Of a DNA stretch of 64,000 bases, positions 123 to 33,129 are shown piece after piece (position 1 is the first letter of the stretch; each line of letters begins with the position of its first letter). The notes under the pieces are model-generated. The model was not told the DNA's origin, did no database searches, and saw nothing but the letters and a program-made list of their open reading frames with translations. The DNA is from an uncultured Candidatus Saccharibacteria bacterium. Lineage in GTDB: Bacteria > Patescibacteriota > Minisyncoccia > Phycocordibacterales > Phycocordibacteraceae. Where the stretch lies: assembly GCA_964650475.1 (NCBI GenBank), contig CAZYRK010000002.1:12087-76086 (forward strand), read 5' to 3'. A program made the position numbers and the translations under genes.

Positions 123-130
123 ATATAAAT

Positions 131-780: not shown

Positions 781-831
781 AGTGTTGAGAAATAATAAAA
801 AAGACGCGTGTTGCGTCACGATTGCATCCTA

Positions 832-1383: not shown

Positions 1384-1397
1384 AAGTATATAAAGTA

Positions 1398-1703: not shown

Positions 1704-1711
1704 AATTTTAT

Positions 1712-2089: not shown

Positions 2090-2091
2090 AC

Positions 2092-2334: not shown

Positions 2335-2337
2335 ATT

Positions 2338-2541: not shown

Positions 2542-2545
2542 AATA

Positions 2546-2965: not shown

Positions 2966-2976
2966 ACGTATATATA

Positions 2977-3663: not shown

Positions 3664-3678
3664 GATATGTATGAAAAA

Positions 3679-4011: not shown

Positions 4012-4014
4012 ATG

Positions 4015-4356: not shown

Positions 4357-4670
4357 AATGAAATTAAAACCCGCGATGCGGGATAAAGCTACGATACAGG
4401 AAACAGCCACGAGAGTCAACACATTGTGCCTTGTAGTGTTACAAAACATTGACCATCGAGTATGAAAACTTTTTATACAGAGATTGCGAACGCCTTAAAC
4501 AGACTTTATATTAAACAAATTTTATACGTTTGTAGCATAATCCAGCGCATCTCCGTTAATAACAGATATAATTTGCTTTTTAACGCGCGATTAAATTCTG
4601 CGGAGCTTTTTAAGTTGGTAAATACGACAACACTACTAAAAAGCAAACACTTTATCTACGGTGTGCCGCG

Positions 4671-4706
4671 AAAAAACGCGCGACCTTTCGGTCGCGCGTT
4701 TTTTCG
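4671..4706 (-). terminator. Intrinsic terminator hairpin between rplB and rpsS
   Basis: Perfect palindrome AAAAAACGCGCGACC-TTTC-GGTCGCGCGTTTTTT has a U-run on the minus-strand transcript, 20 nt after the rplB stop. Confidence 0.6.
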
Positions 4707-4726
4707 CGTGTTGGTTTCTAAAATAA

Positions 4727-5569
4727 CTACCGCCTCTTTCCAACTTTACGTCGAGATACAATAAATGTATTCGAGTACTTCTTCGGTCGGCGCGTCTTCT
4801 GCCCCTTTCCGGTCGGCTTGCCCCATTTGCTCTTTGCACGACGAGTACCTCGTCCTTGTCTACCTTCACCACCTCCGTGTGGATGATCGACAGGGTTCAT
4901 AGCATTACCACGCACAGTAGGTCGTTTACCCATCCAACGAGAACGCCCCGCCTTACCGATTTTTACGAGCATGTGCTCCTCGTTACCAACAGCACCGACA
5001 GATGCCCAACATAGATCGGAAATCTTACGCACCTCGGTCGACGGAAGCTTTATTTGAGCGTATCCGGCATCATGTGCGATTACCTGCGCGTAGTTTCCAG
5101 CAGAACGTGCCAGACGCGAACCTGCCCCAACCTGAAGCTCTATATTGTATACAAAAGTACCTACAGGAATCTTTCCGAGAGGAAGACGGTTGCCTGTCTT
5201 TACCGGAGCATCTTCCGAAACGATAAACGAATCGCCCACCTCCATGTTTTTAGGAGCGAGCACATAGCGACGCTCTCCATCTGCGTAAAGTGCGATAGCA
5301 ATGTTTGCTGATCGGTACGGATCGTACTCGATTGTAGTGAACTTTGCCGGAACACCCCTCTTGTCGTACTTGAAATCAAGCTTACGGTACCTGCGTTTGT
5401 GTCCCCCACCTTGGTGACGGGTTGTAATACGTCCAAAGGCATTGCGTCCAGCTTGACGTTTCTTGCTGGAAAGCAAGCTCTTGGTTGGTTTATCGCCAGA
5501 AAGATTTTCTCGATATGGCAATGTCGACATGTGACGACGACTCTTGGTTGTTGGTTTGTAAGTTTTCAT
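4727..5569 (-). CDS. rplB: 50S ribosomal protein L2
   Basis: 280 aa with ..NPVDHPHGGGEGR.. L2 signature. Confidence 0.95.
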   Translation of the reverse strand: MKTYKPTTKSRRHMSTLPYRENLSGDKPTKSLLSSKKRQAGRNAFGRITTRHQGGGHKRRYRKLDFKYDKRGVPAKFTTIEYDPYRSANIAIALYADGERRYVLAPKNMEVGDSFIVSEDAPVKTGNRLPLGKIPVGTFVYNIELQVGAGSRLARSAGNYAQVIAHDAGYAQIKLPSTEVRKISDLCWASVGAVGNEEHMLVKIGKAGRSRWMGKRPTVRGNAMNPVDHPHGGGEGRQGRGTRRAKSKWGKPTGKGQKTRRPKKYSNTFIVSRRKVGKRR

Positions 5570-5578
5570 ATACTCGTT

Positions 5579-5968
5579 CTAAGCAAATTGAATAGTGTCC
5601 CCTTTATTGAGGTAAACGTACGCCTTGCGACGACGTGGGCGAATAGCAACACCTGCACGGGCACGCTTTGAAACGCGCTTGCCCGGAAGATTTACAATAC
5701 GCACACTGCGCGGTACTACGTTATAGATTGTTTCTACAGCGCGCGCAACATCTTTTTTCGTTGCAGATCGCGGAATTGCAAATACATAAATACCGTTGTC
5801 TGTTCCGATAAGTGCTTTTTCGGAAATCCACGGAGCGGTAAGGACGACAGCAGCGCGGGCGCGAAGCGCAGTTGTAGCTTCACGTGCTTTTTTTGCAGGT
5901 GCTTTTGCTACTGCGGTTTTTTTCGCTTTTGCGTCTTTTGTAGTTGTGTCTTTAGAGAAGAGAGCCAT
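5579..5968 (-). CDS. rplW: 50S ribosomal protein L23 with K/A-rich N-terminal extension
   Basis: C-terminal 95 aa are L23-like (..IYVFAIPRSATKKDVARAVE..). The N-terminal ~30 aa are K/A-rich. Confidence 0.85.
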   Translation of the reverse strand: MALFSKDTTTKDAKAKKTAVAKAPAKKAREATTALRARAAVVLTAPWISEKALIGTDNGIYVFAIPRSATKKDVARAVETIYNVVPRSVRIVNLPGKRVSKRARAGVAIRPRRRKAYVYLNKGDTIQFA

Positions 5969-5982
5969 AAGTCAAAATATAA

Positions 5983-6729
5983 TTATGCACGTTTTGAGCG
6001 AGCTACTCGCTCTTTAAGAACTCCAAACGCTTCGGTCGGTTTCTCGATGATTAAGTAACGGTATCCAAGTATATCAACCGGGTTTAGGTTTCGTACTTCT
6101 TCTGTAAAGATGTTACCGAAGTTGCTGAAACTTTTTTTAACAAATGAGTCTTTTCCAGAAAGTGCGATGATTGTTGCGTTATTGCGACGCTCTGCAAGCA
6201 TCGGTGTACCGGAAGCTTTCGCAATAGCTGTAATCGCAGATTTCGCGTCTTTACTCTTCGGGGCATCAAATGATAGCGAGTCTACAAAGAAGACTTCTCC
6301 TTCCGCAAACTTTTTAGAGAGTACGGACACGAGGGCTCCTATGCGCATCTTGCGATTTGCTTTTTGTGTATAGTCGCGCTCCGGACGAGGTCCGTGAGTT
6401 GTTCCACCTCCACGCCATATAGGTGAACGGCGTGAACCATGGCGTGCACGACCTGTGCCTTTCTGTTTCCATGGCTTTTTTCCACCACCACGCACCTCAC
6501 TACGGTCTTTTGTACTTGCTACCGTTGGGCGAGCATTGGCTTGCATAGCAAGCACAACTTGATGTACGAGCTCCGCTTTCCATGAGACACCGAACAGCTC
6601 TTCCGGAAGATCTATCTTGCCAGACTCTTTGCCGTCCATTGTATAAACAGGAGCAGAAAGCTTCACGGCAACTTTTTTTGCCGTAGTATTTTCTTTCTTT
6701 ATTATATCTTTCTTTGTTGTAGTAGCCAT
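5983..6729 (-). CDS. rplD: 50S ribosomal protein L4
   Basis: 248 aa, ..GGGKKPWKQKGTGRARHGS.. is an L4 signature. An N-terminal K-rich extension is possible. Confidence 0.9.
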   Translation of the reverse strand: MATTTKKDIIKKENTTAKKVAVKLSAPVYTMDGKESGKIDLPEELFGVSWKAELVHQVVLAMQANARPTVASTKDRSEVRGGGKKPWKQKGTGRARHGSRRSPIWRGGGTTHGPRPERDYTQKANRKMRIGALVSVLSKKFAEGEVFFVDSLSFDAPKSKDAKSAITAIAKASGTPMLAERRNNATIIALSGKDSFVKKSFSNFGNIFTEEVRNLNPVDILGYRYLIIEKPTEAFGVLKERVARSKRA

Positions 6730-6740
6730 ATTTAAATATT

Positions 6741-7358
6741 TTAGGCAGAGATTATCTCTACCAACGAACCACGTCTTCCCGGAATTGCTCCGGAAATTAT
6801 GATTTCTCCGGTCTTTGAATCGACCGCGAGCACTTTGAGACCTTTTACAGTAACTCGTGTATTTCCCATGCGTCCGCCCATGCGCATACCTTTTGCAACG
6901 CGACCTCCGGCACGACCTCCCGAACCGCCGATTGAACCTGGCTCACGCTCGGAATGTTTCTGACCATGCGAGCGAGGACCTCCATGGAAACCATGACGTC
7001 TCACAACACCTGCAAAGCCTTTTCCTTTCATTGTGCCGGAAACCTGTACCTTGTCGCCTTCTGCAAAATCATCAACCGTTATCTCCATACCTACATTGTA
7101 TTCGGCATGGTTATCGATACGAAACTCTTTCAAGACCTTAAAAGCTTTGCCTTTGAGGTGTCCGAGCACTGGTTTGCTGAGCCTCTCTTTTTTCTGATCG
7201 TCAAAACCAACTTGTACAGCTGAATAGCCATCGTCTGCTGGAGTTTTAACTTGAGTCACGGTAACAGGTCCCGCTTTAAGGATTGTACCTGCAAACGACC
7301 GACCTTCGTCGGTAAAAATCTGCGTCATGCGCTCTTTGCGGGCAAGAATAAATTTCAT
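6741..7358 (-). CDS. rplC: 50S ribosomal protein L3
   Basis: Internal MKFILARKERMTQIFTDEG is the L3 N-terminus, so the start is set at ATG 7358 rather than the longer ORF. Confidence 0.9.
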   Translation of the reverse strand: MKFILARKERMTQIFTDEGRSFAGTILKAGPVTVTQVKTPADDGYSAVQVGFDDQKKERLSKPVLGHLKGKAFKVLKEFRIDNHAEYNVGMEITVDDFAEGDKVQVSGTMKGKGFAGVVRRHGFHGGPRSHGQKHSEREPGSIGGSGGRAGGRVAKGMRMGGRMGNTRVTVKGLKVLAVDSKTGEIIISGAIPGRRGSLVEIISA

Positions 7359-7613
7359 GAGTATAAAGCAAAACGCGCAGCGGCATATCGCACTGCGCGA
7401 TGTACCATTGGTCCGTATCATGTTCCGAAATTGGAAAACAGATACGTACGTAGCGTTATAGAGAGCACTCTACACGAACAAAACAAGAAATGCAACCGTT
7501 TGCGCCTGTAATTCAAGAAACACACTCCGTCTCTACACGACAATACCCCACCACAGGCACTGTTTTTAATAATACGAAGCAAAAGCACTCGAGTTTGGTA
7601 GTAAATGCAAAGA

Positions 7614-7650
7614 AAAACACGGCGCCGTTGCCGGCGCCGTGTTTTTCTTT
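7614..7650 (-). terminator. Intrinsic terminator after rpsJ
   Basis: AAAAACACGGCGCCG-TTGC-CGGCGCCGTGTTTTTC hairpin with U-run sits 27 nt after the rpsJ stop on the minus strand. Confidence 0.6.
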
Positions 7651-7676
7651 GTTTTGTGCGATATTGCGCGAGAACG

Positions 7677-8042
7677 CTATATCATTTTCACATCAATCGT
7701 AACCCCTGAAGGGAGTGTAAGATTTGTGAGAGCCTCAACAACTTTCGGTGATGGTGAAAGAATATCGATTAGTCGTTTGTGGATACGCATTTCGAACTGT
7801 TCGCGAGCGTTCTTGTGAACGAATGTAGATCGGTTTACAGTCCAACGTTTAAGCTCAGTCGGAAGAGGCACGGGTCCGATTATCTTTGCGTCAAAACGCT
7901 GTGCCGTGTCCACAATCTGCTTAACCGAGAGGTCGAGCACTTTGTGCTCGTAGGCGCGCACTCGGATACGCAGCTTCGGCTCAGATGCGACCGCGGACGC
8001 TCCTTTTGCTTTTGCTATTTTGTCTTTTGCGGTCGTTGCCAT
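7677..8042 (-). CDS. rpsJ: 30S ribosomal protein S10 with N-terminal extension
   Basis: C-terminal 100 aa are S10-like ([15 protein letters not shown]...). The N-terminal 20 aa are K/A-rich. Confidence 0.88.
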
Positions 8043-8063
8043 AATGATTCAATTAGTACAACA

Positions 8064-9260
8064 CTAGGCGCTAACTTTTGTAACAACACCAGCACCAACA
8101 GTCTTGCCTCCTTCGCGAATAGCAAAGTGCTGTTGCGCTTCAAGTGCTACAGGAGCTGTAAGCTTAACCTTGAAAGTAACTGTGTCTCCTGGCATAACCA
8201 TCTCCTTTCCTTCCGGAAGAGTAACCTCGCCTGTTACGTCCGTAGTACGGATGTAGAACTGAGGTTTGTAACCGGTGAAGAATGGTGTGTGACGACCACC
8301 CTCGTCTTTACCGAGGATATATACCTCTGCTTCAAAGTCTGTGTGTGGTGTTACCGTACCTGGCTTCACAAGAACCTGACCACGGTGCACGTCTTCTTTC
8401 TTTGTGCCTCGCAAGAGGATACCTGCGTTGTCGCCTGCCTGACCTTCTTGAAGCTGTTTGTTGAACATTTCAATACCGGTAACGGTCGTCTTTGTTGTTT
8501 CTTTGATACCAACAATCTCAACTTCCTCACCAACTTTGACTTGTCCTCGCTCTATACGGCCTGTTACAACAGTACCGCGACCTTCAATGGAGAAGATGTC
8601 TTCAATCGGCATAAGGAACGGCTTCTCAAGATCACGTACAGGATCCGGGAAGAACTCGTCCATTGTGTCGACAAGTTTCTTAACATTCTGTGCCTGTTCG
8701 TCATCTGCTGAAGTTGCTTCAAGTGCTTTCAAAGCGGAACCGCGAATAAATGGTGAGTCCTTGAAGCCCTGCTTCTCAAGGAGCTCTTTGATTTCTTCTT
8801 CCACGAGATCAATCATGTCTGCGTCGTCTACCATATCGGTCTTGTTAAGGAATACGATAATGTTTGGTACGCCAACTTGCTTTGCGAGAAGGATATGCTC
8901 ACGAGTTTGTGGCATAGCCCCGTCGGTTGCTGCGACCACGAGAACAGCTCCGTCCATTTGGGCGGCACCTGTAATCATGTTCTTAATGTAGTCTGCGTGA
9001 CCCGGAGCATCGATGTGCGCGTAATGGCGTTTCGGTGTCTCGTATTCCGAGTGGTGAAGAGCGATAGTAATACCGCGCGCCTTTTCTTCGGGCGCGTTGT
9101 CGATGTTCTCAACTTTTTCGCTACGAGCTTTATAGCCCGCTGATTCGTTGAGAGTAAGTACGTTTAGTATAGCCGCTGTGAGTGTTGTCTTACCATGGTC
9201 GACATGACCGATAGTACCAACGTTCACATGAGGCTTACTGCGATCAAATTCTGCTGCCAT
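8064..9260 (-). CDS. tuf: Elongation factor Tu
   Basis: 398 aa, [14 protein letters not shown] and DCPGHADY motifs. Confidence 0.97.
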
Positions 9261-9466
9261 AAGTCTTGTAAATTAAAATTAAAAGAATCGAAATAATAGA
9301 TAACGCGCCGCGCCTCGCGCCGACGGTGATACCGTCGAGTTCAAACACGACGCCCGAAAGTGTCGCGAACGAACAATTGCGTTAGTGCAAAGGTTACCCG
9401 ACCTGAGAGAAAAGGTCAAGAAAAATATACCCTGCCTCTCTATTTTACCGGTGTTGTTGCTACACC

Positions 9467-9510
9467 AAAACCCAAACGCGCGCAAACAAAGTTTGCGCGC
9501 GTTTGGGTTT
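9467..9510 (-). terminator. Hairpin terminator after fusA
   Basis: AAAACCCAAACGCGCGCAAAC-AAA-GTTTGCGCGCGTTTGGGTTT sits 17 nt after the fusA stop. Confidence 0.5.
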
Positions 9511-9526
9511 AACACATACTTAAATT

Positions 9527-11674
9527 TTACTTGCGTGATGCGATAATATCCAGCGCCACGTTCTGAGGCACGGTCTCGTAGTGATCGAATTCCATAGTCA
9601 TAGAACCTCGACCTTCCGTCATAGAACGCAAAATCGTTGTGTATCCAAACATTTCCGCAAGCGGTACCTTTGCATGAATCGCTTTGTTTATACCTCGGTC
9701 TTCCATTCCTTCTATCGCTCCGCGCTTCCCTGAAAGGTTTCCGGTGATGTCACCCATAAACTCCTCCGGAACAATAACCTCAACCTCCATTACAGGCTCG
9801 AGCAGTACCGGCTTTGCTTTTTGCACAGCCTCGTGGAAAGCCTGTGACGCTGCGATTTTGAAAGCAATCTCAGACGAGTCCACTTCATGGTATGAACCGT
9901 CGTACAGCTCAACAGAAACGTCAACAATCGGGTAACCTGCGAGCACACCCCTGTCCAAACCTTCACGAATTCCTTTTTCTACAGCCGGAATATATTCCTG
10001 CGGAATAACACCTCCCTTAATACTGTTGATGAATTCGAAATGGTCTTCGCGTTTAATATTTTTCGGAACCTTTGCACCTTCTTCAATCGGCTCAAGCGGT
10101 TTAATGCGAATTTTCACATGCCCGTACTGGCCACGCCCACCGGTCTGTTTGATGTATTTATTTTCAACTTCCGCAGAAGTCTTGATAGCTTCACGGTACG
10201 CTACCTGTGGCTTGCCAACATTTGCTTCAACATTAAACTCTCGCTTCATACGGTCAACAAGAATGTCGAGGTGAAGCTCGCCCATACCTGCGATAATAGT
10301 CTCCATAGTTTCATCATCTGTTGAAACACGGAACGTCGGATCTTCATCGGATAGTTTGTGAAGAGCGATTCCAAGCTTTTCCTGATCGGCTTTGGTCTTC
10401 GGCTCAATACGCAAAGAAACAACCGGCTCCGGAAAGATTATCTCTTCCAAAACAATCGGGTGCGCTTCGTCACAAAGAGTATGAGATGTTTTTGTATCTT
10501 TCAGTCCAACCGCCGCCGCAATCTCACCGGCAAAAACCTTTTTTACTTCCTCACGCTTGTCCGCTTGAAGTCGCACGATACGCCCGATGCGCTCTTTGGT
10601 TCCCGTATTTGCATTGTATACATACGAACCAGCCTCAAGCGTCCCTGCGTAGACACGAAAGAAAGTAAGTGTCCCAACGAAAGGGTCGGTTTGGATTTTG
10701 AATGCGAGCGCTGTGAACGGTTCGTCATCTGATGGTTTACGCTCGATTTCTTCACCGCTCTTCGGGTCTATACCTTTAACTGGTGGCAAGTCTACAGGCG
10801 ATGGAAGATAGTCCGCAACAGCATCGAGCACCGGCTGTACACCTTTGTTTTTCAAAGCAGAGCCCGTAAACACAGGAAAGATTTCATTTGAAATTACAGC
10901 TTTACGAAGAGCGCTCTTAAGCTCTTCAAGAGAAGGCTCGTTTCCTTCAAGATAAGCGCTCATAAGATTTTCGTCTTGCTCTACAATACGCTCAACCAAT
11001 TCTGCTCGGTACTTCTTTGCATCTTCTTTTAGATTTTCCGGCACCTCAATAATCACAACTTCTTCACCCATGTTTCCTTCGAAATGAAAAGCCTTCATTG
11101 TGAGCAGATCTACAGCTCCTTCATGTTCGCCTTCCTCACCTATCGGTATTTGCATACGCACCGCTTTTTTGGAAAGACGGTCTTCAATGCTTTTATATGA
11201 ACGCTCGAACGACGCTCCAGTACGATCGAGTTTATTTATGAAACACAATCGAGGAACATTTGCATCGTCTGCGTAGCGCCAGTTTGTTTCTGTTTGCGGT
11301 TCAACACCTGAAACACCGTCGAAAACAACGACAGCACCATCGAGTACACGCATAGAACGCTGAACCTCTGCGGTAAAGTCGATGTGCCCTGGGGTGTCAA
11401 TAATATTAAAACGGAACTTCTTGGACATATCTTTTTTATCCATTTCATCTGTCTTGCTCCAGAAGCATGTAATGGCAGCGGAGGTTATTGTGATACCTCG
11501 CTCACGTTCCTGCTCCATCCAGTCTGTTGTTGTTTCTCCTTCATGAACTTCACCAATTTTGTGTTGGCTACCTGTATAGAAAAGAACACGTTCAGATGTA
11601 GTTGTTTTACCGGCGTCAATATGTGCAATGATGCCGAAGTTGCGTACTTTTTCAAGCGGATAATCTCGATTCAT
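9527..11674 (-). CDS. fusA: Elongation factor G
   Basis: 715 aa, [13 protein letters not shown].. G-domain, full-length EF-G architecture. Confidence 0.97.
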
Positions 11675-11876
11675 AGATAATTGTTACAAAAAATAAGATG
11701 CTCCGACGGTTTTACCAAAACGCTTACACATATGAAAACATATTATCTTTCCATACAACAAGCGAGTGGCTAAAAAGACCGCCAAAAGCGTTGCTTAGAG
11801 GATAACCTAACTACCATAAAATGCAATCTTATATACAAAAATTGTCCGAAGCAACCGAAACGCATACTGTTTTCCT

Positions 11877-12281
11877 TTAGTGATTTAGCTTCCCGCTAGG
11901 GTCAATATGTGTAATACAGAAAAATTGTTGTTTTTGATAACCAAACACGCGAAACAGCTTGTCTGACTCGACACGAAAATGAAAATAATACTGTTCCATA
12001 AGATTACCCTCATAAGTGCTCTGCGTACTTATTAAATTGAAGTTTGGAGCTCCTTGTTTTTCAAACGTTAGCCCCTTTTTTCTTGAGAGATTCGCAAACT
12101 GCTTCCATGTTAATTTTTCCACATATTGCAGTTTGTGTAAAAAAATTTTTGCTTGCTCCTTATTTAAGGGCCAGAACGAATACTTTTTATCAAGCGAGCA
12201 GTCACTTATGGAAAAACAAATTTTTTCTTCTGCGTATTCAAGATTAATTTTTGTTGATACGTCGTGTTCGTCCATAGGCAA
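11877..12281 (-). CDS. Hypothetical protein; candidate toxin partner of the upstream Panacea-domain gene
   Basis: 134-aa ORF 13 nt downstream of the DUF4065 gene on the same strand. The C-terminus YYFHFRVESDKLFRVFGYQKQQFFCITHID loosely resembles RelE/ParE/HigB-type toxin C-termini. No confident family call. Confidence 0.35.
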   Translation of the reverse strand: MPMDEHDVSTKINLEYAEEKICFSISDCSLDKKYSFWPLNKEQAKIFLHKLQYVEKLTWKQFANLSRKKGLTFEKQGAPNFNLISTQSTYEGNLMEQYYFHFRVESDKLFRVFGYQKQQFFCITHIDPSGKLNH

Positions 12282-12294
12282 GGAAAAACCCGAC

Positions 12295-12759
12295 CTATTT
12301 ATTCAATAACGGGCTGTAATACTCTTTAAGGGCTTTGTTTGAAATGATTTGACTCGATGTTTTGTTTGCTTCTTTCCATGGAGTATGAGCATGGGTAATA
12401 TTAACGAGCTTGCTTGCGGAATAACCACCGAAAGTGTTCCAGATTATTTGAACAACTTTTTTATCCTCTTCGGAAAGCGATGACTTGCCGTCATCAATAA
12501 TCGGATTACTGCCATTACTTCGATATTTTTTATAAACACGCGAAACAACCGGTCCGTACTCCCACGCTTCAATATCATCAGAAAAAAGTGCCCTACCTAA
12601 TTTTGCAATATAATATGCCTGCGCAAAATATAATATCTTTTGTAATTTAAGATTTGTGATTCCTTCGCGTTCCTGATTATCGCCGACAAGCTCTTTTGAA
12701 GCGAGATGGATGAAATATTTTGCAACATTGTCGGCTGTGTAAGTTATTTTTTTAGCCAT
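12295..12759 (-). CDS. Panacea-domain (DUF4065/SocA-like) antitoxin-family protein
   Basis: ..NLKLQKILYFAQAYYIAKLGRALFSDDIEAWEYGPVVSRVY.. matches the DUF4065 core. The likely start is the internal MAKKITYT (12759); the ORF extends to 12822. Confidence 0.65.
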   Translation of the reverse strand: MAKKITYTADNVAKYFIHLASKELVGDNQEREGITNLKLQKILYFAQAYYIAKLGRALFSDDIEAWEYGPVVSRVYKKYRSNGSNPIIDDGKSSLSEEDKKVVQIIWNTFGGYSASKLVNITHAHTPWKEANKTSSQIISNKALKEYYSPLLNK

Positions 12760-12858
12760 ATATAAACTATATCTTGCTGAGTAACAAAAGCCAACAAAAT
12801 CCCGGCAATCATCATTGTGCATAAGTAAAGCGCGCGTAGTTATATATTGTTCAGCACA

Positions 12859-12898
12859 CCGGGCTACTTAGGGGTCGCCCCCCCCTAAGTAGCCCGGG
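12859..12898. repeat. 40-bp hairpin element, copy 1 (flanks hicAB)
   Basis: CCGGGCTACTTAGGGGTCGCCCCCCCCTAAGTAGCCCGGG. The same core is repeated at 13363-13400 in the same orientation. Confidence 0.7.
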
Positions 12899-12905
12899 AT
12901 GTTTA

Positions 12906-13100
12906 CTATTTTTTACTTATGCCTATTATACCGAGGTCATTACAAATTTTTTTCGCAAGAAAGTTATTTATCTCATTATGTCTTGGAACGGTGGATAATT
13001 TTTTAATGGTTGGATTGAGATACACGCTATGCTTTGCACCCTCCCGCAAAAATATACACCCACATTTTATAAGATGTTTTATGAGGTCAGTCCTTTTCAT
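12906..13100 (-). CDS. hicA: HicA-family mRNA interferase toxin
   Basis: 64 aa, MKRTDLIKHLIKCGCIFLREGAKHSVYLNPTIKKLSTVPRH is close to the HicA consensus (..GSHhxF.hP....tVP.H). Confidence 0.8.
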   Translation of the reverse strand: MKRTDLIKHLIKCGCIFLREGAKHSVYLNPTIKKLSTVPRHNEINNFLAKKICNDLGIIGISKK

Positions 13101-13360
13101 TAGATGGAGACAATGAGATTCTCTTTTATAATTTTTTGCTTGCTATTTGACTTATACATCAAACGGTTTGTCTCCAGCACCAAAAAAAGTGCGTCTTTAA
13201 GATTTTCTTTTGTCTCACTCAGTGTGGCACCTTGAGTATTCACGCCGGGGACTTCTTCAATCCACCCAGAGTACCACTTTCCATCTTTTTTATAGTTTGC
13301 TGTAAATTGTCTTTTCATATACATAGTATACATTACATTAATATATAGATGCGAGCCCAC
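13100..13360 (-). CDS. hicB: HicB-family antitoxin
   Basis: 86 aa, ..YKKDGKWYSGWIEEVPGVNTQGATLSETKENLKDALFLVLE is the HicB/UPF0150 fold signature. The stop overlaps the hicA start. Confidence 0.7.
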   Translation of the reverse strand: MGSHLYINVMYTMYMKRQFTANYKKDGKWYSGWIEEVPGVNTQGATLSETKENLKDALFLVLETNRLMYKSNSKQKIIKENLIVSI

Positions 13361-13362
13361 GG

Positions 13363-13400
13363 GGGTTACTTAGGGGTCGCCCCCCCCTAAGTAACCCGGG
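13363..13400. repeat. 40-bp hairpin element, copy 2 (flanks hicAB)
   Basis: GGGGTTACTTAGGGGTCGCCCCCCCCTAAGTAACCCGGGG has an identical loop and core, with compensatory stem changes versus copy 1. Confidence 0.7.
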
Positions 13401-13406
13401 GTGTGA

Positions 13407-13709
13407 TTATTGTCTGGCGTAGCACCCCATAAGCTCCGCGACTGTGATTATGTGCCCCTGCATTTCTGAAAGTACAGTGTCTTTTGTTACCCTTTCTTTA
13501 AGAGAAAGATTTGTATCAAGTGCGTACAGGCTGAAAAAATAACGATGCTCTTTCGGCTCATACTGCGGTGGCGGGCAATGTCCGGTATAGCCATTTTTGC
13601 CGGAACCGTTTGCCCCTTGTGTTCCAAGAATGGTGCCTACGGACAATTGAAAGCGGTGGAGATATGTTTTCACCATCGCACGTGTAGCGCTCGGGGATAT
13701 AATCACCAT
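13407..13709 (-). pseudogene. PEBP/YbhB-YbcL family protein, 5'-truncated remnant
   Basis: ..GYTGHCPPPQYEPKEHRYFFSLYALDTNLSL...GHIITVAELMGCY matches the C-terminal two-thirds of YbhB-type PEBP. The N-terminal ~60 aa are missing, and only 112 nt separate it from the rpsG stop. Confidence 0.5.
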
Positions 13710-13763
13710 TTGAGAATGCGGTTGAGACGAGTGCCGTTTGTATATGTTTATGTTAGCCCAACG

Positions 13764-13797
13764 AAAGGGGCGCGCGACAAAGTCGCGCGCCCCTTTC
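13764..13797 (-). terminator. Hairpin after rpsG
   Basis: AAAGGGGCGCGCGAC-AAA-GTCGCGCGCCCCTTTC. Confidence 0.45.
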
Positions 13798-13821
13798 CCT
13801 TTTTAGTGCCTTTCACTTACT

Positions 13822-14301
13822 CTACCAAGCAAAGTGCGCAAAAGCCTTGTTTGACTCCGCCATGCGGTGCATGTCGTCTTTCTTTTTAACTGCGTCTCCT
13901 TCACCTTTAGCCGCGAGCAGAAGCTCTTCTGCGAGTTTTTCAGACATTGGTCGTCCTTTTTTGTTGCGTGCTCCGTTTATTATCCAACGAAAAGCCAGTG
14001 CGAGTCTGCGCTGTTGCGGAACTTCGCGAGGAACCTGATAGTTTGCACCACCTACACGACGAGAACGAACCTCCATAAGAGGAGAAACATTGCGTATCGC
14101 CATTTCAAAAGTTTCAAGCGCGTCAATCTTTGTTCCCTCTTCGTTTTTAAAGTCGAGACTTCCAAGAGCATCGTACACAACCTTGCGTGCGATATCTTTC
14201 TTTCCGTCCAACATAACAGCGTTAATGAAACGGGTAAGCGTTTCAGAACCGTATTTAAGATCGGGGTTCCATGTGCGGGGATTTTTAATTGGGTGTCTCA
14301 T
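13822..14301 (-). CDS. rpsG: 30S ribosomal protein S7
   Basis: 159 aa, S7-like (..FINAVMLDGKK..ARKVVY.A..), follows rpsL. Confidence 0.9.
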   Translation of the reverse strand: MRHPIKNPRTWNPDLKYGSETLTRFINAVMLDGKKDIARKVVYDALGSLDFKNEEGTKIDALETFEMAIRNVSPLMEVRSRRVGGANYQVPREVPQQRRLALAFRWIINGARNKKGRPMSEKLAEELLLAAKGEGDAVKKKDDMHRMAESNKAFAHFAW

Positions 14302-14310
14302 ATTAAAATA

Positions 14311-14718
14311 TTAGTTCGGTTTTTTAGCTCCGTATCGTGAGCGTCCGCGACGGCGCTTGTCTACACCAGCAGCGTCGAGTTTACCTCGAACGATAGTGTA
14401 TTGCACGCCGATGTCTTTAACGCGACCACCGCGAAGAAGCACAACGGAGTGTTCCTGAAGGTTGTGACCTTCTCCCGGTACATACGCGGTAACTTCCATA
14501 CCGTTTGTAAGACGTACACGTGCGATTTTTCGAATAGCAGAGTTCGGTTTGCGAGGAGTCTTTGTGGTTACTTTTGTACACACACCTCTTTTAAAAGGAG
14601 ATGGGTAATTCGTCGGTCGGTTTTTAAGAGCATTGAAACCACGCGAAAGCGCAACGACTTTTGTCTTGCGGGTTTTGTTTTTGCGTGGCTTGTGTGAAAG
14701 CTGATTGATTGTTGACAT
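14311..14718 (-). CDS. rpsL: 30S ribosomal protein S12
   Basis: 135 aa, [13 protein letters not shown]...[16 protein letters not shown] is S12-like. Confidence 0.93.
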
Positions 14719-14753
14719 TTCGAATATAAAAACCCCACAAAGGGCTTGCGAGC

Positions 14754-14782
14754 ACTATATATGATATGCGAAGGAATTGCAA
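14754..14782 (-). promoter_or_regulatory. Candidate sigma70-type promoter for rpsL-rpsG
   Basis: Minus strand reads TTGCAA-N17-TATAGT, about 35 nt upstream of the rpsL ATG. Confidence 0.3.
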
Positions 14783-15039
14783 CGTCACGGCTTGCCGACA
14801 CTACAAAACCCGATAGTCAGTTAGGATTTAATATTAAAACTATTACAATTTTTTGTCACTATATCTGCCACGCAACTAAGGTGTGTAACTTAATTGCCAG
14901 CACGAAACAGAAACAAAACATATTGTGGATAATCACACTACTTTTATTGACTAAAAAATATCATTAATATAATATTCAAGATACGAAATGCCGGGGAGCG
15001 AGCGTGATGCCGCGATCCGGTTTTTCTATTTGTTTTTGC

Positions 15040-15828
15040 TCAAGGTAATACTTTTATTGCCTCGACCTTATCAAGGAACCTCTTTTTTAAAACTTTGGCA
15101 TTTCTGGGCGCACGAAATATTTTTTTATTAAGTATTCGCAACATAATTTCTTCATAAGAGTTTTTCTTAATTTTCTTTTTAAGATATTTACATTTAATCG
15201 CATATGCGAACAAATCCGCAATTTGCTCCTCTATATCATGATTCTTTTTTGAAACAAAGGATATTGAAGTTATTGTCTCTTGAACTTTTTTATATGATAC
15301 TTTTGGTACAGTGAGTCCCTCTGATAGAAAATACCCGAGTGCGCGATGAAAATAAAAATCTTTTTCTGCTGTCGCGCTTTCAATAACAACCTCTCCGCGT
15401 GAATCATGAGAAAGCAATATCAATATGAAATTGCGAATCATTGATTTTGCCGTTTCTTTGTAGATTTTTGTTTCGTCCCAACCTAATTTTTTGGTTTTCT
15501 CCTTATCAACAATTGCAAAAAACATTTTGAATTTCGAGTCGATCAAAAGAGCCTCGAGATCATGCAAGAAGTTTTTGTGAATATCCTTGCCTCTTAAAAT
15601 TGCAAATTCGCCATCTCTACGTCCAATTTCACGTGAGTGAAAAATTATATCTGTGTGTCCCCAATATTTAAACTTAATTTAATCTGCGAATATTTTTATG
15701 CGCGCTCGCTCAGAATCACTAACCGAGCAGCAAGACAAAACATACAAAGGGGAAGGATGTTTATAGCTTGCATGTCCGAGCTCATCTATAAATAGTTTGT
15801 ATGCGATTTTGTCAAAATGGTTTGTCAT
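15040..15828 (-). pseudogene. DUF3800-family protein interrupted by in-frame TAA
   Basis: N-part (15682-15828) reads MTNHFDKIAYKLFIDELGHASYKHPSPLYVLSCCSV.., then TAA at 15679-15681, then the same frame continues ..KYWGHTDIIFHSREIGRRDGEF...FAIVDKEK...VVIESATAEKD...ADLFAYAI, which is a DUF3800 architecture. The downstream part alone starts at TTG. Confidence 0.55.
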
Positions 15829-16066
15829 AACAAGACAATATATATAATATCAGCAGTATCCAAACATCTCTAATTTAAGTCTAGAAATATAAATATTGGT
15901 AGCTGGTAGAAAACTGCGACAAAAAAACAATGCTATTTTAGCCCTTTATTGAAAGGGCTTTTCTCGCGGTTTTTGAAACAGCCATTGCTTCATATTATCC
16001 TTATATAATCAATTTTACTCATATTGGCTGAAAGATTATCCACCTATGTTCTAAAAAGGGTGTCGC

Positions 16067-18835
16067 ATGTACACCATAAAGATATTAAAATGTAAACCAA
16101 TGCGCGCACATAAGCCCCTACTCTTTTCACTCGCAGTTTTTATCTTTGCTGTTTTGGTAGGCGTGCCTCAAGTCTCTCGGGCAGATACAAATCCAAATAT
16201 TCCACAATGCCCAAGATTCGAAAAAACCGGGCTGCGCTGGACAAATCCAGACCCGCATCGAAACACTTTCAATCAGACTTTTCCTAAAATAGATATGACT
16301 GGGGATATTTTTATATCTAATTATCCTGGTATTTTTATGCAGGACGGTGGCACGTACTCTTTTCCTTTTCATATACCCAGTTTTGGTTATGTGGTTATTG
16401 CAGGTACAAACTGTTCCAAAACAAAAGGCGACCTGTACTTTCTTCCGAAAGATTCCAGCGCACGCCAATTCGTAACGAGCTTCCATGGAGCCGGAGATAT
16501 TTTTGGGGGTTCACCTTACAGCCCACCGGACATTACTTATTTCCAATGGAAAAAATCCGGGCAATACGAGCTTGATATCCAAGAAAAGAATTCTGACACC
16601 GGCACATATGCGCTTACAAAAACCATTCACTTTACAGCAATAAACACCGACAACCCTTGCTCTGCCCCCAATTCCTGTTTTGACAATGTTCTTTTTATCC
16701 CGGGCACCGAAGCGAGCAGACTGTACTACAAAGACGGTTTTGGTGAACACCAAGTATGGGAACCGGATTTTTATACCGATATACCGTACCTAGAAATGAA
16801 CCAAGACGGCACGAGCAAACACACGCTGTACACGAAAGACATTATCGGGAGTTTGTATGGGAACACTACGGTCGAGAAAAAGATTGCTCTGCAATACTTA
16901 AACCAGGACGGAGTACAGGTCTACGGAAACTTCGAAAAGTTTATGAACGGGCTCGTAGCTTCAAGCACAATTAAGCAATGGTCTGCTTACCCCTACGACT
17001 GGCGCTACAGCGCGGACGACATTGTAAACAACGGAACTCTCACAGAAATGCCAAACGGCACCTTAAAACGCGTTTATATTGAAAAAGAGATCGAAAACCT
17101 TGCGTCAAGCTCCCCGACGGGGAAAGTAATGATTGTGGCACATTCAAATGGTGGTTTGGTTGCAAAAGAGCTTTTACAGAAACTCTCCAACGACGGCAAG
17201 CTAAAGCTTGTTGACAAGTTCGTTATGGTTGCCACTCCGCAATGGGGTACACCGGAAGCTATCGGCGTACTATTGCATGGAGACGGACAGACTCAAGCGC
17301 ACGGGCTTCTTATGAGCAGTGCCGAGACCCGAAGAGTAACAAAAACAATGCCCGGAGCTTACGACCTTTTGCCATCCTGGGAATATTTTCAGCAAATTAC
17401 TATTCCGGTTATCACTATCGATGCAAACGGCTCCGCCACAAACGACCTTGCAAAAGCTTTCGGAACAAAAATATCTTATTTCACAGAATTCGCAAATTTT
17501 CTTGAACACGGGTTTGGATATTTCCCCGCCCCGCAAGACACGGACACAGCACTGCGCACACCTATAGCTCTTTCCAAAAAACTCATCGATAAAGCAAAAG
17601 ACATGCATTTTCTTATAGACGTAGCGACCAGATGGTCGGATCTTTACGGTATCGACGTAACAGCGATAGCAGGCTGGGGGCAAAACACAGTAAAAACACT
17701 GGCGTACTCTACCGGGCAAAAAACAATCTGCACAAACCTCACCGCCGATGTTATAAACGCTTTTGAACCTCCGTGCCATACCTACTATTATCTCGAACAC
17801 ACACCGGTAACAACCCAAGGTGGAGACGGCACCGTCGTTTATCAAAGTGCTGTTGGAAATATTATTCACGAGTTGTTTTTTGATTCTTTTCTTTTCAAGA
17901 AAATCTTCCACGAGAAAATAGTCCACCAAAACATAACCTCCGCACCGCCAATACAAAATGTAATTAAAGACATTCTTACAAACAAAAAAGTACAGAAAAC
18001 AAACTACATAACAAAAACAAAACCTTCTTCCGGTGAAACTTTCCACGAAATCCGTATAAGCTCTCATTCTCCGGTAAATATTCTTATAACTTCCGCAAAC
18101 GGGGAACAGAGCGGTGTTGTCCATATTCCCGGCACAGACTTCTCTGGAACAAAAATGGATATTCTAGGAAGCTCCGTGCAGGTTTTCGATACAGAAGAGT
18201 ATGTAAGCCTTCCAAAAAATGGAAACTATAAAGTGGTTGCGCGGGGTCACGGAAACGGCACAGCAACAATACTTATTGAAACGATAGCCCAAGACGGAAC
18301 TGCGAGCACTACAAATACGTTTGCGGAAATTCCGACCACGGCAAGCTCCACCATTACTTTCTCCGTATCAAAAGGACAGCCTACAGCACCTATAATAGAC
18401 CTCACAGGAACCGGCAAACACACTTTTACCATACCTGTTGGCAACGACCCGCTCGCATATGTTCTTTATATGAAAAACGCGATTAAAGAAATGAATCTCT
18501 CTCGCGGTGAGCACTTTGTTATCAATGCAAAGCTCTCCGTGATAGAAATGCAGATAAAAAGCTCCAAAGAAACATCGCGATTTTTCAGAAAGGTGTGGCG
18601 AGGACACAGACCATACGGCAAACTGAGCGCCTGGCGAAACAAACAGATTAAATTTGAGCTTGCTGTTCTTACTCGCTATATCAACCACCAGTTTTCTCTT
18701 TCTGCGCGTATCGATAAAAATAAAGACATGCGCTCGCATCGGCACTTCGCCCGATACAATATGCAACCACACATAAGTGCGACGCAAGCTGAAACCATTA
18801 TCGATATGATCAACCGCCTAAAAAACTTAATCTAA
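16067..18835 (+). CDS. Secreted alpha/beta-hydrolase (lipase/esterase-like, GHSxG-type nucleophile elbow) with large C-terminal region
   Basis: 922 aa with a signal peptide (MRAHKPLLFSLAVFIFAVLVGVPQVSRA) and IVAHSNGGLVAKELL nucleophile motif typical of PGAP1/lipase-class hydrolases. The last ~120 aa are unusually basic. Confidence 0.6.
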   Translation: MYTIKILKCKPMRAHKPLLFSLAVFIFAVLVGVPQVSRADTNPNIPQCPRFEKTGLRWTNPDPHRNTFNQTFPKIDMTGDIFISNYPGIFMQDGGTYSFPFHIPSFGYVVIAGTNCSKTKGDLYFLPKDSSARQFVTSFHGAGDIFGGSPYSPPDITYFQWKKSGQYELDIQEKNSDTGTYALTKTIHFTAINTDNPCSAPNSCFDNVLFIPGTEASRLYYKDGFGEHQVWEPDFYTDIPYLEMNQDGTSKHTLYTKDIIGSLYGNTTVEKKIALQYLNQDGVQVYGNFEKFMNGLVASSTIKQWSAYPYDWRYSADDIVNNGTLTEMPNGTLKRVYIEKEIENLASSSPTGKVMIVAHSNGGLVAKELLQKLSNDGKLKLVDKFVMVATPQWGTPEAIGVLLHGDGQTQAHGLLMSSAETRRVTKTMPGAYDLLPSWEYFQQITIPVITIDANGSATNDLAKAFGTKISYFTEFANFLEHGFGYFPAPQDTDTALRTPIALSKKLIDKAKDMHFLIDVATRWSDLYGIDVTAIAGWGQNTVKTLAYSTGQKTICTNLTADVINAFEPPCHTYYYLEHTPVTTQGGDGTVVYQSAVGNIIHELFFDSFLFKKIFHEKIVHQNITSAPPIQNVIKDILTNKKVQKTNYITKTKPSSGETFHEIRISSHSPVNILITSANGEQSGVVHIPGTDFSGTKMDILGSSVQVFDTEEYVSLPKNGNYKVVARGHGNGTATILIETIAQDGTASTTNTFAEIPTTASSTITFSVSKGQPTAPIIDLTGTGKHTFTIPVGNDPLAYVLYMKNAIKEMNLSRGEHFVINAKLSVIEMQIKSSKETSRFFRKVWRGHRPYGKLSAWRNKQIKFELAVLTRYINHQFSLSARIDKNKDMRSHRHFARYNMQPHISATQAETIIDMINRLKNLI

Positions 18836-19301
18836 CTTTATGAAACTCTGGTATAAAAAATCTAGCCTTTTCATACTCGCCGGCATTTCGTATCTTGTCG
18901 GGCAGTATTTTAGAGGAGAATGGTGGCCTTTTTTCACATGGCCATTCAAATGCAATATGATAACTTCAGGAACCGCCATGTACTGCGACCCTAAATATAT
19001 GGACACTCTCGGCTTTCCTCTCATCGTCCTCGGACAGACGCTCGCTATCGTTGCGCTCATACTTTTGCTTGCAAACGAAAGTGCTTTTCGCAAATGGCTT
19101 CACTTTAGTTATTGGTATGTGCCTGTTGCAACAATACTCTCGTTTATGATGTATCCCGCCCATACCCCTCTTGGCGGAGAGGTTTCTATTTCGCAAGGTG
19201 TTTATTTGTTTGGGAGACCGTATGTTCTCATCACCGCCGGGATTGTAATTCTATATATTCTAAAATTCCTAAAGAGACAACTTCGGGAAAGGAGACTCCG
19301 A
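18791..19301. repeat. 511-bp direct repeat, copy 1
   Basis: Identical ORFs on both strands and identical boundary sequence imply that 18791-19301 equals 19990-20500. It includes the last 45 nt of the hydrolase gene. Confidence 0.75.
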
Positions 19302-19316
19302 GTGAAGCGAGACTAG
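18840..19316 (+). CDS. Hypothetical polytopic membrane protein (copy 1)
   Basis: 158 aa, ~4 predicted TM helices. The first 153 aa are identical to ORF 20039-20536. Confidence 0.5.
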   Translation: MKLWYKKSSLFILAGISYLVGQYFRGEWWPFFTWPFKCNMITSGTAMYCDPKYMDTLGFPLIVLGQTLAIVALILLLANESAFRKWLHFSYWYVPVATILSFMMYPAHTPLGGEVSISQGVYLFGRPYVLITAGIVILYILKFLKRQLRERRLRVKRD

Positions 19317-19428
19317 CCGAGAGTTAACAGAAGCCCAAAACAGAAGTGTTTTAACACTGGCGAACACTTTGCACAGAAAAACATACGCTCGATTCAAGTT
19401 TCCACCTCCATATGATAGGGTTTGATAT

Positions 19429-19743
19429 ATGAAGAATACTTTCAAAAAAGGGGTTTCCAGAGTTTTGATTTTTTTCGATACTGCGGAAAAAGTTTGGTAT
19501 GGGGTTGCTTTGGATTTTAATCTTATCGTTGACGGAAACGAACCGGAGACGGTTCGGAAAGACCTCCGGAATTTAATGCTCGACTATATCGACTCTGCAA
19601 AAAAGCTGGGGGACGAAAAACTTTTGAATAGAAAAATCGATAGTGAGTATGAAAAGATATGGAAAGAACTAGAAAAAGGAAACTTGGAAAAGAAGCTTTT
19701 GTCTCCATATCGGTTCTACTCTGCGAGTAAAGAATATGTCTAA
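19429..19743 (+). CDS. hicB: HicB-like antitoxin (UPF0150 fold)
   Basis: 104 aa, ..VLIFFDTAEKVWYGVALDFNLIVDGNEPETVRKDLRNLMLDYIDSA is a HicB-like pattern. It overlaps downstream hicA by 8 nt. Confidence 0.5.
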   Translation: MKNTFKKGVSRVLIFFDTAEKVWYGVALDFNLIVDGNEPETVRKDLRNLMLDYIDSAKKLGDEKLLNRKIDSEYEKIWKELEKGNLEKKLLSPYRFYSASKEYV

Positions 19744-19975
19744 TTGTTATAAAAATTGGATTTTTATAGATATTAAAAAGTTTTTAGTTATAAACGATTT
19801 CAAATTGTTGAGACAAAAAGGAAGTCATGTTCATTTTTATAAAAAAGTACATGGAAAAACTTTTTTGGTTACGGTTCCATTCCATGGGAAGCAAAGCCTT
19901 AAAATAAAGACTATGAAAAATGTCATCGACAATTCACAAATTGATAAAGAAAAATGGTTTGAATTTAAAAAATAA
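19736..19975 (+). CDS. hicA: HicA-family toxin
   Basis: 79 aa, ..FKLLRQKGSHVHFYKKVHGKTFLVTVPFHGKQSLKIKTMKNVI matches HicA consensus. Confidence 0.65.
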   Translation: MSNCYKNWIFIDIKKFLVINDFKLLRQKGSHVHFYKKVHGKTFLVTVPFHGKQSLKIKTMKNVIDNSQIDKEKWFEFKK

Positions 19976-19989
19976 GTAATTGCTCTTAA

Positions 19990-20500
19990 GAAACCATTAT
20001 CGATATGATCAACCGCCTAAAAAACTTAATCTAACTTTATGAAACTCTGGTATAAAAAATCTAGCCTTTTCATACTCGCCGGCATTTCGTATCTTGTCGG
20101 GCAGTATTTTAGAGGAGAATGGTGGCCTTTTTTCACATGGCCATTCAAATGCAATATGATAACTTCAGGAACCGCCATGTACTGCGACCCTAAATATATG
20201 GACACTCTCGGCTTTCCTCTCATCGTCCTCGGACAGACGCTCGCTATCGTTGCGCTCATACTTTTGCTTGCAAACGAAAGTGCTTTTCGCAAATGGCTTC
20301 ACTTTAGTTATTGGTATGTGCCTGTTGCAACAATACTCTCGTTTATGATGTATCCCGCCCATACCCCTCTTGGCGGAGAGGTTTCTATTTCGCAAGGTGT
20401 TTATTTGTTTGGGAGACCGTATGTTCTCATCACCGCCGGGATTGTAATTCTATATATTCTAAAATTCCTAAAGAGACAACTTCGGGAAAGGAGACTCCGA
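19990..20500. repeat. 511-bp direct repeat, copy 2
   Basis: See copy 1. It starts with a duplicated fragment of the hydrolase 3' end (..ETIIDMINRLKNLI*). Confidence 0.75.
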
Positions 20501-20536
20501 AAAATAAAAGCACGCGAATCTACAGACACACACTAA
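20039..20536 (+). CDS. Hypothetical polytopic membrane protein (copy 2, different C-terminus)
   Basis: 165 aa. It diverges from copy 1 only after residue 153, where the repeat ends. Confidence 0.5.
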   Translation: MKLWYKKSSLFILAGISYLVGQYFRGEWWPFFTWPFKCNMITSGTAMYCDPKYMDTLGFPLIVLGQTLAIVALILLLANESAFRKWLHFSYWYVPVATILSFMMYPAHTPLGGEVSISQGVYLFGRPYVLITAGIVILYILKFLKRQLRERRLRKIKARESTDTH

Positions 20537-33092: not shown

Positions 33093-33129
33093 CGTTATAA
33101 CTATATATAAAGGAGTGTTTTTTTGAAAA

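Follow-up and report, generated by a model that had tools for sequence, protein, structure and literature searches.

The canonical str operon of bacteria consists of rpsL, rpsG, fusA and tuf. Among toxin–antitoxin (TA) systems, hicAB of Escherichia coli has the toxin gene first. In PanAT systems, the PanA partners already known include toxins of the RelE superfamily (MqsR-like) and ParE (Kurata et al. 2022, PMC8832971); operationally, such a system is recognized by two genes no more than 100 nucleotides (nt) apart, an architecture found in at least two species, and the lack of a longer conserved operon (PMC8832971). The domain at the C-terminus of NsnC, from the Menshen system, has been described as a BECR RNase that bears an H-R-H triad (PMC12065111). 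Here, we describe the space between rpsG and fusA in a 64-kb stretch of contig CAZYRK010000002.1 from an uncultured bacterium, in which a hicB-hicA pair, a Panacea-type pair and the remnant of a PEBP gene lie inside the str cluster. The whole stretch of 64,000 nt is referred to as the window, and loci on other contigs by our own numbers (L001 and so on). A scan of species-representative genomes with ribosomal protein S7, the rpsG product, gave matches in Patescibacteria only (Paceibacteria, Kaiserbacteria and ‘Parcubacteria’), with a best S7 identity of 85%. The organism is a Patescibacterium, Paceibacteria/Kaiserbacteria-like.

We read the region, with a probability of roughly three in four, as a small strain-variable site of gene flux in the Patescibacteria chromosome, and not as a single island in an intact str operon. 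An earlier note on this DNA had described one 2.1-kb TA island, inserted inside the str operon. Its parts do not support a single insertion: the PEBP gene is an older, decaying resident, hicBA and panAT are separate modules of low GC content, and the hicB fragment in a near-identical strain, L001, is too diverged for the same allele. The modules are of known kinds, namely HicAB, and PanAT with a predicted RelE-type toxin. The features of the region are as follows, where REP stands for repetitive extragenic palindrome, ORF for open reading frame, aa for amino acids and EF-G for the fusA product:

14718-14311, minus strand: rpsL (ORF list)
14301-13822, minus strand: rpsG (ribosomal protein S7, 159 aa; PF00177, 184 bits), final gene of the rpsL-rpsG unit
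13763-13797, no strand: hairpin at the end of rpsG, perfect 16-bp stem, GC-rich, read as a terminator; left edge of the variable segment
11851-13763, minus strand: strain-variable segment of 1913 nt, from blastn of the L001 spacer against the window
13407-13743, minus strand: PEBP/YbhB pseudogene with three lesions (PF01161, profile positions 68-135 only)
13363-13404, no strand: REP-like palindrome, copy A, 14-bp stem and 7-nt loop (-30.4 kcal/mol)
13100-13333 (likely start 13318), minus strand: hicB-like antitoxin gene, UPF0150 type, 72-77 aa (PF21748)
12906-13100, minus strand: hicA toxin gene, 64 aa (PF07927)
12861-12902, no strand: REP-like palindrome, copy B, 16-bp stem (-37.5 kcal/mol, z -5.4)
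12295-12759, minus strand: panA, Panacea-domain antitoxin gene, 154 aa (PF13274)
11877-12275, minus strand: panT candidate, 132 aa, predicted RelE/YafQ-like (BECR) fold, 19 nt past the panA stop
11675-11850, minus strand: native fusA 5' region (92.7% identity to L001 8772-8949)
11674-9527, minus strand: fusA (EF-G, 715 aa; Pfam EF-G domains)
9260-8064, minus strand: tuf (ORF list)
8042-7677, minus strand: rpsJ (ORF list)

As the earlier note had stated, five ORFs, all on the minus strand, keep rpsG and fusA apart, and by gene content two TA modules, hicBA and the Panacea pair, lie between them. Profile searches bore out the labels PBP/YbhB, HicB-like (with a score just under the cut-off), HicA and Panacea. 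The candidate toxin, previously given as 134 aa, starts at 12275 and has 132 aa, and the limits of the island, previously set at 11675-13821, become 11851-13763 when the window is compared with the island-free L001. The GC content drops to 0.36-0.39 over hicBA and panAT, from 0.46-0.49 in the flanking ribosomal genes; that of the PEBP remnant is host-like (0.49).

The variability is most apparent in L001. Its S7 is identical to that of the window and its EF-G is 99.2% identical, with a divergence at four-fold sites of 6.4% (49/762), and its rpsG-fusA spacer is only 470 nt long. Homology between the two stops at 13764, at the end of the rpsG hairpin, and restarts at 11850, so that the 1913 nt at 11851-13763 are replaced by 233 nt in L001, between flanks that are 96.6% and 92.7% identical. 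The L001 spacer contains two collinear stretches that match hicB with 75-80% identity: 8572-8611 against window 13330-13290 (80%) and 8628-8709 against window 13241-13159 (75%, E 2.5e-10). We considered the possibility that this fragment was simply a decayed orthologue, and rejected it: its divergence of 20-25% is three to four times the neutral level of 6-7% (P ~6e-8). Since the divergence exceeds the neutral level to this extent, the fragment comes from a different hicB allele. By this comparison, more than one hicB allele has occupied the site, through repeated occupation or allele replacement.

Other contigs carry further states of the same locus. The exact S7 protein is present on nine other contigs. 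Two of these assemblies, L002 (SRR14803397) and L003 (SRR6439371), have the same joins as the window, and all five island ORFs show 100% protein identity; an exact-sequence look-up of HicA gave no match, despite the presence of hicA among the genes called on L002. The NCBI metagenome contig L104 matches window positions 1-12911 with 99.85% identity and continues into hicB, supplying the join from fusA through panAT to hicB, while L004 supplies the join from rpsG through PEBP to hicB. L104 is without hicA, the equivalent of window 12912-13151 being missing (L104 14630-14805), and its hicB stops early (...LMYKTKQ and a stop codon) and leads straight into the REP-like palindrome, an allele that looks like a toxin-first step of decay. 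The L004 contig ends at the exact point where the hicA-plus and hicA-minus alleles diverge. One species thus shows a series of alleles (full island, hicA-less and nearly empty) that illustrates how chromosomal TA modules arrive, lose their toxin and erode.

The window and L001 differ by two further inserts. One, at 14813-16030 just upstream of rpsL, corresponds to 34 nt in L001; it has a low GC content (0.31-0.35) and carries ORFs of 175 aa (15040-15567) and 49 aa (15679-15828). Neither ORF matched a Pfam family, and the 175-aa ORF had no match in NCBIfam, PADLOC or PHROGs either. Another, at 19302-19989, 6 kb away, carries a second HicA-type pair on the plus strand, in which a 104-aa ORF (19429-19740; no Pfam match) overlaps by about 5 nt a 79-aa HicA_toxin ORF (19736-19972; 43 bits). 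This pair is flanked by paralogous ORFs of about 158 and 165 aa (18840-19313 and 20039-20533), both of which match a single 156-aa gene of L001. The TA modules are not tied to the str operon: this second hicBA-like pair lies outside it, in another insert particular to the strain.

The rpsG-fusA junction also varies across the clade. In a survey of 70 related loci with S7 and EF-G on one contig, the gap ranged from 13 to 4380 nt (median 483): it was below 200 nt in 25 loci, at least 400 nt in 40 and, in 17, at least 1 kb and filled with diverse genes. A Pfam scan of 92 ORFs from these gaps found Peptidase_M15_4 and NlpC/P60 (four each), phosphoglucomutase, PBP and SocA_Panacea (two each), HicA and PIN (one each), as well as GcpE, CofD, OTCase, a histidine kinase, a response regulator and others. 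Because the gaps hold so many unrelated families, the junction is variable clade-wide, and TA genes are one kind of cargo among several. In L034 and L068, a Panacea gene followed by a partner of 124 or 125 aa lies directly after rpsG; these partners share 77% identity and, when tried as members of the 132-aa family of the window, proved unrelated to it. The comparison of the junction in relatives, which the earlier note had proposed as a check, thus revealed no uniform arrangement, and its view of the junction as an integration hotspot is supported: the site varies among strains and among the 70 relatives, and it has received a horizontally exchanged PEBP cassette. That the arrangement is unusual is true relative to textbook bacteria, but not within this clade. 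Our literature search on rpsG/fusA in Patescibacteria found nothing usable.

The variable segment lies between what appear to be two transcription units. The hairpin after rpsG is strong (-37.9 kcal/mol, z -7.1), and its counterpart in L001 has a 26-bp stem with an A-run and a T-run (-48.5 kcal/mol), like a bidirectional terminator. On the other side, the 176 nt before fusA are common to the window and L001, and contain promoter-like hexamers, TTGCAT (11826-11821) and TATCCT (11804-11799), separated by a 16-nt spacer. Comparison of relatives revealed equivalent elements upstream of fusA (TTGCAT, TTGCAA or TTGCTT, a 16-17-nt spacer, and TATTCT or TATTGT), followed by a leader motif, AACGC-N(2-9)-GCG(G/C)-TTTTATTTTT. 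In 23 of 73 loci the motif precedes the fusA start, at -33 to -39, and elsewhere it is almost absent: 1.54 Mb hold 26 occurrences, of which these loci make up 23. Some genomes with short gaps also carry the promoter and leader motif. Since these elements occur in L001 and in relatives, including those with short gaps, the split between rpsG and fusA predates the island, and probably explains why insertions are tolerated there. The earlier note had reasoned that fusA must now have its own promoter within 11675-11876. A promoter-like element is indeed present, but it was not acquired through the island, being common to the island-free L001 and the relatives. From the hairpin and the promoter-like element, we infer that transcription ends after rpsG and starts anew before fusA. 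The window and L001 carry a diverged, possibly duplicated version of the leader motif. An Rfam scan of 7000-16500 gave only sub-threshold matches on terminator palindromes, and no known RNA family in the island or the fusA leader.

The PEBP gene was recognized by a match of ORF 13709-13407 to PF01161 (PBP) that covers only the C-terminal half of the profile (68-135 of 135), the gene having no intact ORF over the whole PBP domain. The intact 156-aa genes of L018 and L101, along with L004, served as references and revealed a start codon changed from ATG to ATA (13743-13741), a frameshifting deletion of 112 nt between TTTCAATT repeats, and a deletion of 21 nt between CACCATT repeats. The N-terminal residues FSNGDYIPERYTCDGENISPPLSI are still there, in another reading frame. 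The gene is therefore not 5'-truncated, as first described: both of its ends are present, and what it has lost is its start codon and two internal pieces. In L004, which is less deleted, the ATG and the 21 nt are retained. L018 and L101 are 94-95% identical to the window over PEBP and the following palindrome (94.7% for copy A taken together with PEBP), but only about 75% identical in rpsL, rpsG and fusA. This switch in identity falls at the rpsG hairpin, and the intact PEBP genes occupy the same position after the terminator. L011, whose full-length EF-G is closest among the species representatives (89.5%), has a 61%-identical PEBP gene in the same place. Because PEBP is so much more similar than its flanks, and because L011 has it in the same place, the gene is an older resident of the gap that has passed between co-occurring lineages and is decaying here.

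The hicA product matched PF07927 with 36.8 bits (cut-off 27), as well as phrog_353 ‘toxin’, and its residues R19, H24 and H41 are invariant among 18 sequences. The two genes overlap by 1 nt, within the TAATG that joins the hicB stop to the hicA start. For HicA, 214 homologues were found at E <=0.001, whose named sources are all Patescibacteria, and in all eight places shown, representing two genomic neighbourhoods, a UPF0150 gene of 57-73 aa comes before the homologue and abuts it or overlaps it by no more than 4 nt. HicB chains in the PDB match the HicB of the window at E 0.02-0.05. Only residues 21-58 of this protein match any domain, and no C-terminal DNA-binding domain was found before its end at 72-77 aa. 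In L127-L130 (2280-2695), a 79%-identical HicA with a HicB lies just downstream of dnaG-rpoD and a GIY-YIG gene, a further case in Patescibacteria of a TA pair next to core information-processing genes.

PanA gave strong matches to PF13274 SocA_Panacea (86.6 bits, cut-off 25.7; ORF 12822-12295) and phrog_1281 (4e-48), and fell below the cut-off of the SocA equivalog NF047745 (76.6 bits against 190), the model for the antitoxin of SocAB, a type VI system in which the antitoxin is a ClpXP adaptor. Its real start is at 12759, preceded by a promoter-like site, TTGGCT-17-TATAGT, at 12794-12766. The 132-aa partner (ORF 12281-11877) matched the NCBIfam family MAG6450 with 40.3 bits (cut-off 40), a name that our literature search found only as a ‘conserved hypothetical’ locus in Mycoplasma agalactiae papers. 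It has 217 homologues at E <=0.001, all of whose named sources are Patescibacteria; among the 120 homologues listed, identities are 55-77% and lengths mostly 129-136 aa. An exhaustive profile search of 1.84 billion proteins returned 85 cluster representatives, of which the full-length ones are single-domain proteins of about 125-155 aa and some are shorter fragments. In four unrelated neighbourhoods (L090, L092, L094 and L096), the partner lies about 20 nt downstream of a Panacea gene with 68-75% identity, compared to 19 nt in the window. The module is thus mobile, and the pair conforms to the published operational definition of a PanAT locus (PMC8832971).

An AlphaFold model of the 132-aa protein, built with 46 sequences (pLDDT 83), has α-helices packed on an antiparallel β-sheet, as in a RelE-type fold. 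Foldseek named a RelE/YafQ-type family for the model, without significance. In PADLOC, residues 10-126 matched the C-terminal part of NsnC (E 7.7e-8). Among the 46 sequences, H99 and R101 do not vary and H123 is found in at least 90%, residues that compare with the PB-BECR1 triad by type and not by position in an active site. The protein had no Pfam RelE/ParE match and no sequence match to a toxin in the PDB. From this model and these residues, we infer that it is a candidate RNase toxin neutralized by PanA.

On our reading of the locus, the str cluster is split in this clade, with a strong terminator hairpin at the end of rpsG and a promoter-like element and leader belonging to fusA itself, and the space between them would take up and lose DNA with neither unit disturbed. 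It holds three independent pieces in this strain. The first is PEBP/YbhB, the older resident exchanged between lineages and now a pseudogene; the second, the type II TA pair hicB-hicA between two copies of the REP-like palindrome; and the third, the mobile two-gene Panacea module, in which PanA is predicted to bind and neutralize a toxin with a RelE/YafQ-type RNase fold, whose conserved His99, Arg101 and His123 resemble the H-R-H triad of NsnC's effector domain, to which it is related. The prediction for both toxins is RNA cleavage and an arrest of translation once the antitoxin is lost, and since they would act at that point, the modules may persist as selfish addiction elements, or possibly as phage defence, with decay starting from loss of the toxin.

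How the pieces enter is a separate question, to which the palindromes may be relevant. A 42-nt palindrome occurs twice as a direct repeat, 502 nt apart, bracketing hicBA. The two copies are 93% identical and differ by one compensated pair (T:A to C:G); no such palindrome-repeat match was found in 100 shuffles of the window. We considered the possibility that a RAYT-type (REP-associated tyrosine transposase) HUH (Y1) transposase elsewhere in the genome moves hairpin-bounded cassettes, of which hicBA would be one, an ORF of 262 aa in L101 a second and a zeta toxin gene in L108 a third, and we regard this as unlikely, although a number of observations point that way. The L001 difference and the PEBP exchange both have their left junction at the rpsG hairpin. 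A metagenome scan for the core of the palindrome, TACTTAGGGG-N(3-9)-CCCCTAAGTA, returned 26 loci. In L101, the extended palindrome follows PEBP and recurs 970 nt further on, the copies bracketing a different gene, a 262-aa ORF just before fusA; in L108 (913-2090), a Zeta_toxin gene (276 aa) and a 56-aa ORF lie between two inverted copies of the core, beside a PD-(D/E)XK/Cas4-like gene. In six of the 26 loci the core is near a Y1_Tnp gene: it is 10-25 nt upstream of the gene in three, follows it at 13-16 nt downstream in two, and is at a distance of about 0.9 kb in the sixth; Y1 genes flanked by the core were seen in L102, L111, L115, L116 and L121. In L015, a RAYT-like (Y1) ORF with ACTTGGGGG palindromes lies directly upstream of rpsL.

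Against such a transposase, there is no Y1 gene in the 64-kb window, and the palindrome has only two copies there. The hairpins are direct repeats here, but the copies of L101 and L108 are inverted; the end of panAT is without one, and hicBA homologues elsewhere also lack it. The Y1 proteins near the core are only 30-80% identical to each other, and their best NCBIfam match, ‘REP-associated tyrosine transposase’, scores 56-63 bits against an equivalog cut-off of 80. Some of the 26 core matches are probably due to chance, and we saw no case of one cassette with the same hairpins in two contexts. The corollary, a junction that is a hairpin-guided cassette site instead of a passive safe harbour, we likewise consider unlikely. 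The wider proposal is more doubtful: that REP-like hairpins of Paceibacteria, recognized by RAYT-type HUH transposases, bound small cassettes, that terminator-type hairpins such as that of rpsG serve as entry points, and that the gap is a site of exchange between lineages. We term the repeated palindrome REP-like, and offer its role in moving cassettes as a hypothesis, not a result. A literature search on RAYT in Patescibacteria found nothing usable.

Two other origins for the hairpins were tried and rejected. They are not intrinsic to hicBA cassettes: in six other loci, the homologues come with a TTGACA-type promoter of their own and no such hairpin. Nor are they integron attC sites, which are imperfect, have RYYYAAC and GTTRRRY core sites and go with an IntI integrase: the palindrome is perfect and without core sites, its GTTACTT by inspection does not fit GTTRRRY, and the 25 Pfam families listed for other ORFs of the window include no integrase. 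The window has many other long palindromes with perfect arms of 16-29 bp and loops of 2-4 nt, each unique in sequence (for example 4667-4708, 7608-7651, 9468-9510, 33034-33094, 50986-51045 and 61377-61434), which as a group are unusually long and perfect. Those examined at 4667-9510 are just downstream of genes, some with A-runs and T-runs, and look like bidirectional terminators. The 262-aa ORF of L101 (7873-8661) is rich in lysine and glutamate and had no match in Pfam, NCBIfam, PADLOC or PHROGs. In L015 (1672-2387), the ACTTGGGGG...CCCCCAAGT palindromes are found at 1672-1698 and, unexpectedly, inside the ORF at 2173-2203.

It is improbable that the placement was selected, with translation-targeting toxins kept beside rpsL-rpsG and fusA-tuf in order to tie their expression to the translation apparatus. 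The expected target of both HicA and the RelE/YafQ-like candidate is mRNA or translation, a few relatives likewise have TA genes in the gap (the two Panacea genes, one HicA and one PIN noted above), and the HicA homologue beside dnaG-rpoD has a comparable setting; but near-identical strains are without the island or without hicA, most relatives have unrelated genes or nothing in the gap, the same panAT pair occurs in its four unrelated neighbourhoods, and another hicBA-like pair lies in a non-ribosomal insert. The terminator hairpin and the separate promoter-like sites also speak against co-transcription.

A remnant of a prophage or integrative element at the 3' end of rpsG is very improbable. 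The low GC content and the matches of PanA to phrog_1281 and HicA to phrog_353 would fit, but the segment is only 1.9 kb, its pieces are not alike in age and origin, and elsewhere the modules are found by themselves. We rejected this reading because no integrase or phage genes were found: the window has no Y1 transposase, neither integrase nor transposase is among the Pfam families listed for its other ORFs, and the only tRNA gene found is about 48 kb away (61449-61520). Finally, a chimeric join of reads from different organisms, conceivable for a metagenome-derived contig with a GC step and palindromes able to mislead assemblers, is excluded as far as is possible without reads, because the arrangement recurs in independent assemblies, with identical joins on both sides from the different runs of L002 and L003 and partial joins in L104 and L004, the latter ending where the hicA alleles part.

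Some points weigh against the reading of the region as a site of gene flux with two TA modules. All comparisons rest on metagenome assemblies and not on mapped reads. The match of the hicB product (ORF 13360-13100) to PF21748 UPF0150 has a score of 26.5 bits, just below the cut-off of 27.3, and the toxin and antitoxin activities of both pairs are predictions. A standard sigma-70 scan of the minus strand of 11675-11876 found no consensus promoter, the fusA hexamers being weak matches to the consensus. The direction of change at the site, gain or loss, is settled only in part.

The reading as a gene-flux site corrects the textbook expectation for one large uncultivated group, in which the str cluster amounts to two units, with routine gain and loss of genes in the rpsG-fusA gap; annotation or binning checks based on synteny should not flag insertions there as errors. 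Besides the split str cluster of Paceibacteria and the allele series of TA decay, some interest attaches to the family of PanA partners, which is compact, well conserved and easily tested, with a RelE/YafQ-like predicted fold. The REP/RAYT-like hairpins are of interest as a possible driver of turnover in Patescibacteria; hairpin-guided exchange, if true, would constitute a cassette system in ultra-small bacteria distinct from integrons.

Compared to described systems, the palindrome resembles REP/RAYT elements in being extragenic, perfect and repeated at gene ends, with a compensated substitution that keeps the stem, and in having a core that adjoins Y1/RAYT-like genes on other contigs. It differs from them in its two copies per 64 kb without a RAYT gene, and in that the copies bracket protein-coding cargo, unlike classical REP/REPIN. 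Relative to the RelE/YafQ/HigB toxins and PB-BECR1 of NsnC (Menshen; PMC12065111), the 132-aa protein lacks a match at the sequence level to Pfam RelE/ParE or the PDB, has about 35 extra N-terminal residues carrying an invariant motif of their own, FSICDCSLDKKYSF, and is paired with PanA, not with RelB, DinJ or NsnAB. The hicBA pair has the HicA domain with its invariant His24, and adjacent, co-oriented and overlapping genes, as in HicAB systems, and its partner has a probable HicB-like N-terminal fold; here, however, the antitoxin gene comes first, and HicB is only 72-77 aa, with no ribbon-helix-helix or helix-turn-helix domain detected. The Panacea pair is like PanAT in having the Panacea gene first and a small partner directly downstream, in being conserved across species in unrelated neighbourhoods, and in not belonging to a longer operon, but the partner belongs to a small stand-alone family with named sources in Patescibacteria only and no Pfam domain, and was not matched here to the 88 published toxin clusters. 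Finally, gene order and orientation are those of the canonical str operon, whereas the terminator hairpin after rpsG and the separate promoter-like element before fusA are not, and the gap of this clade carries assorted genes and measures at least 400 nt in 40 of 70 genomes.

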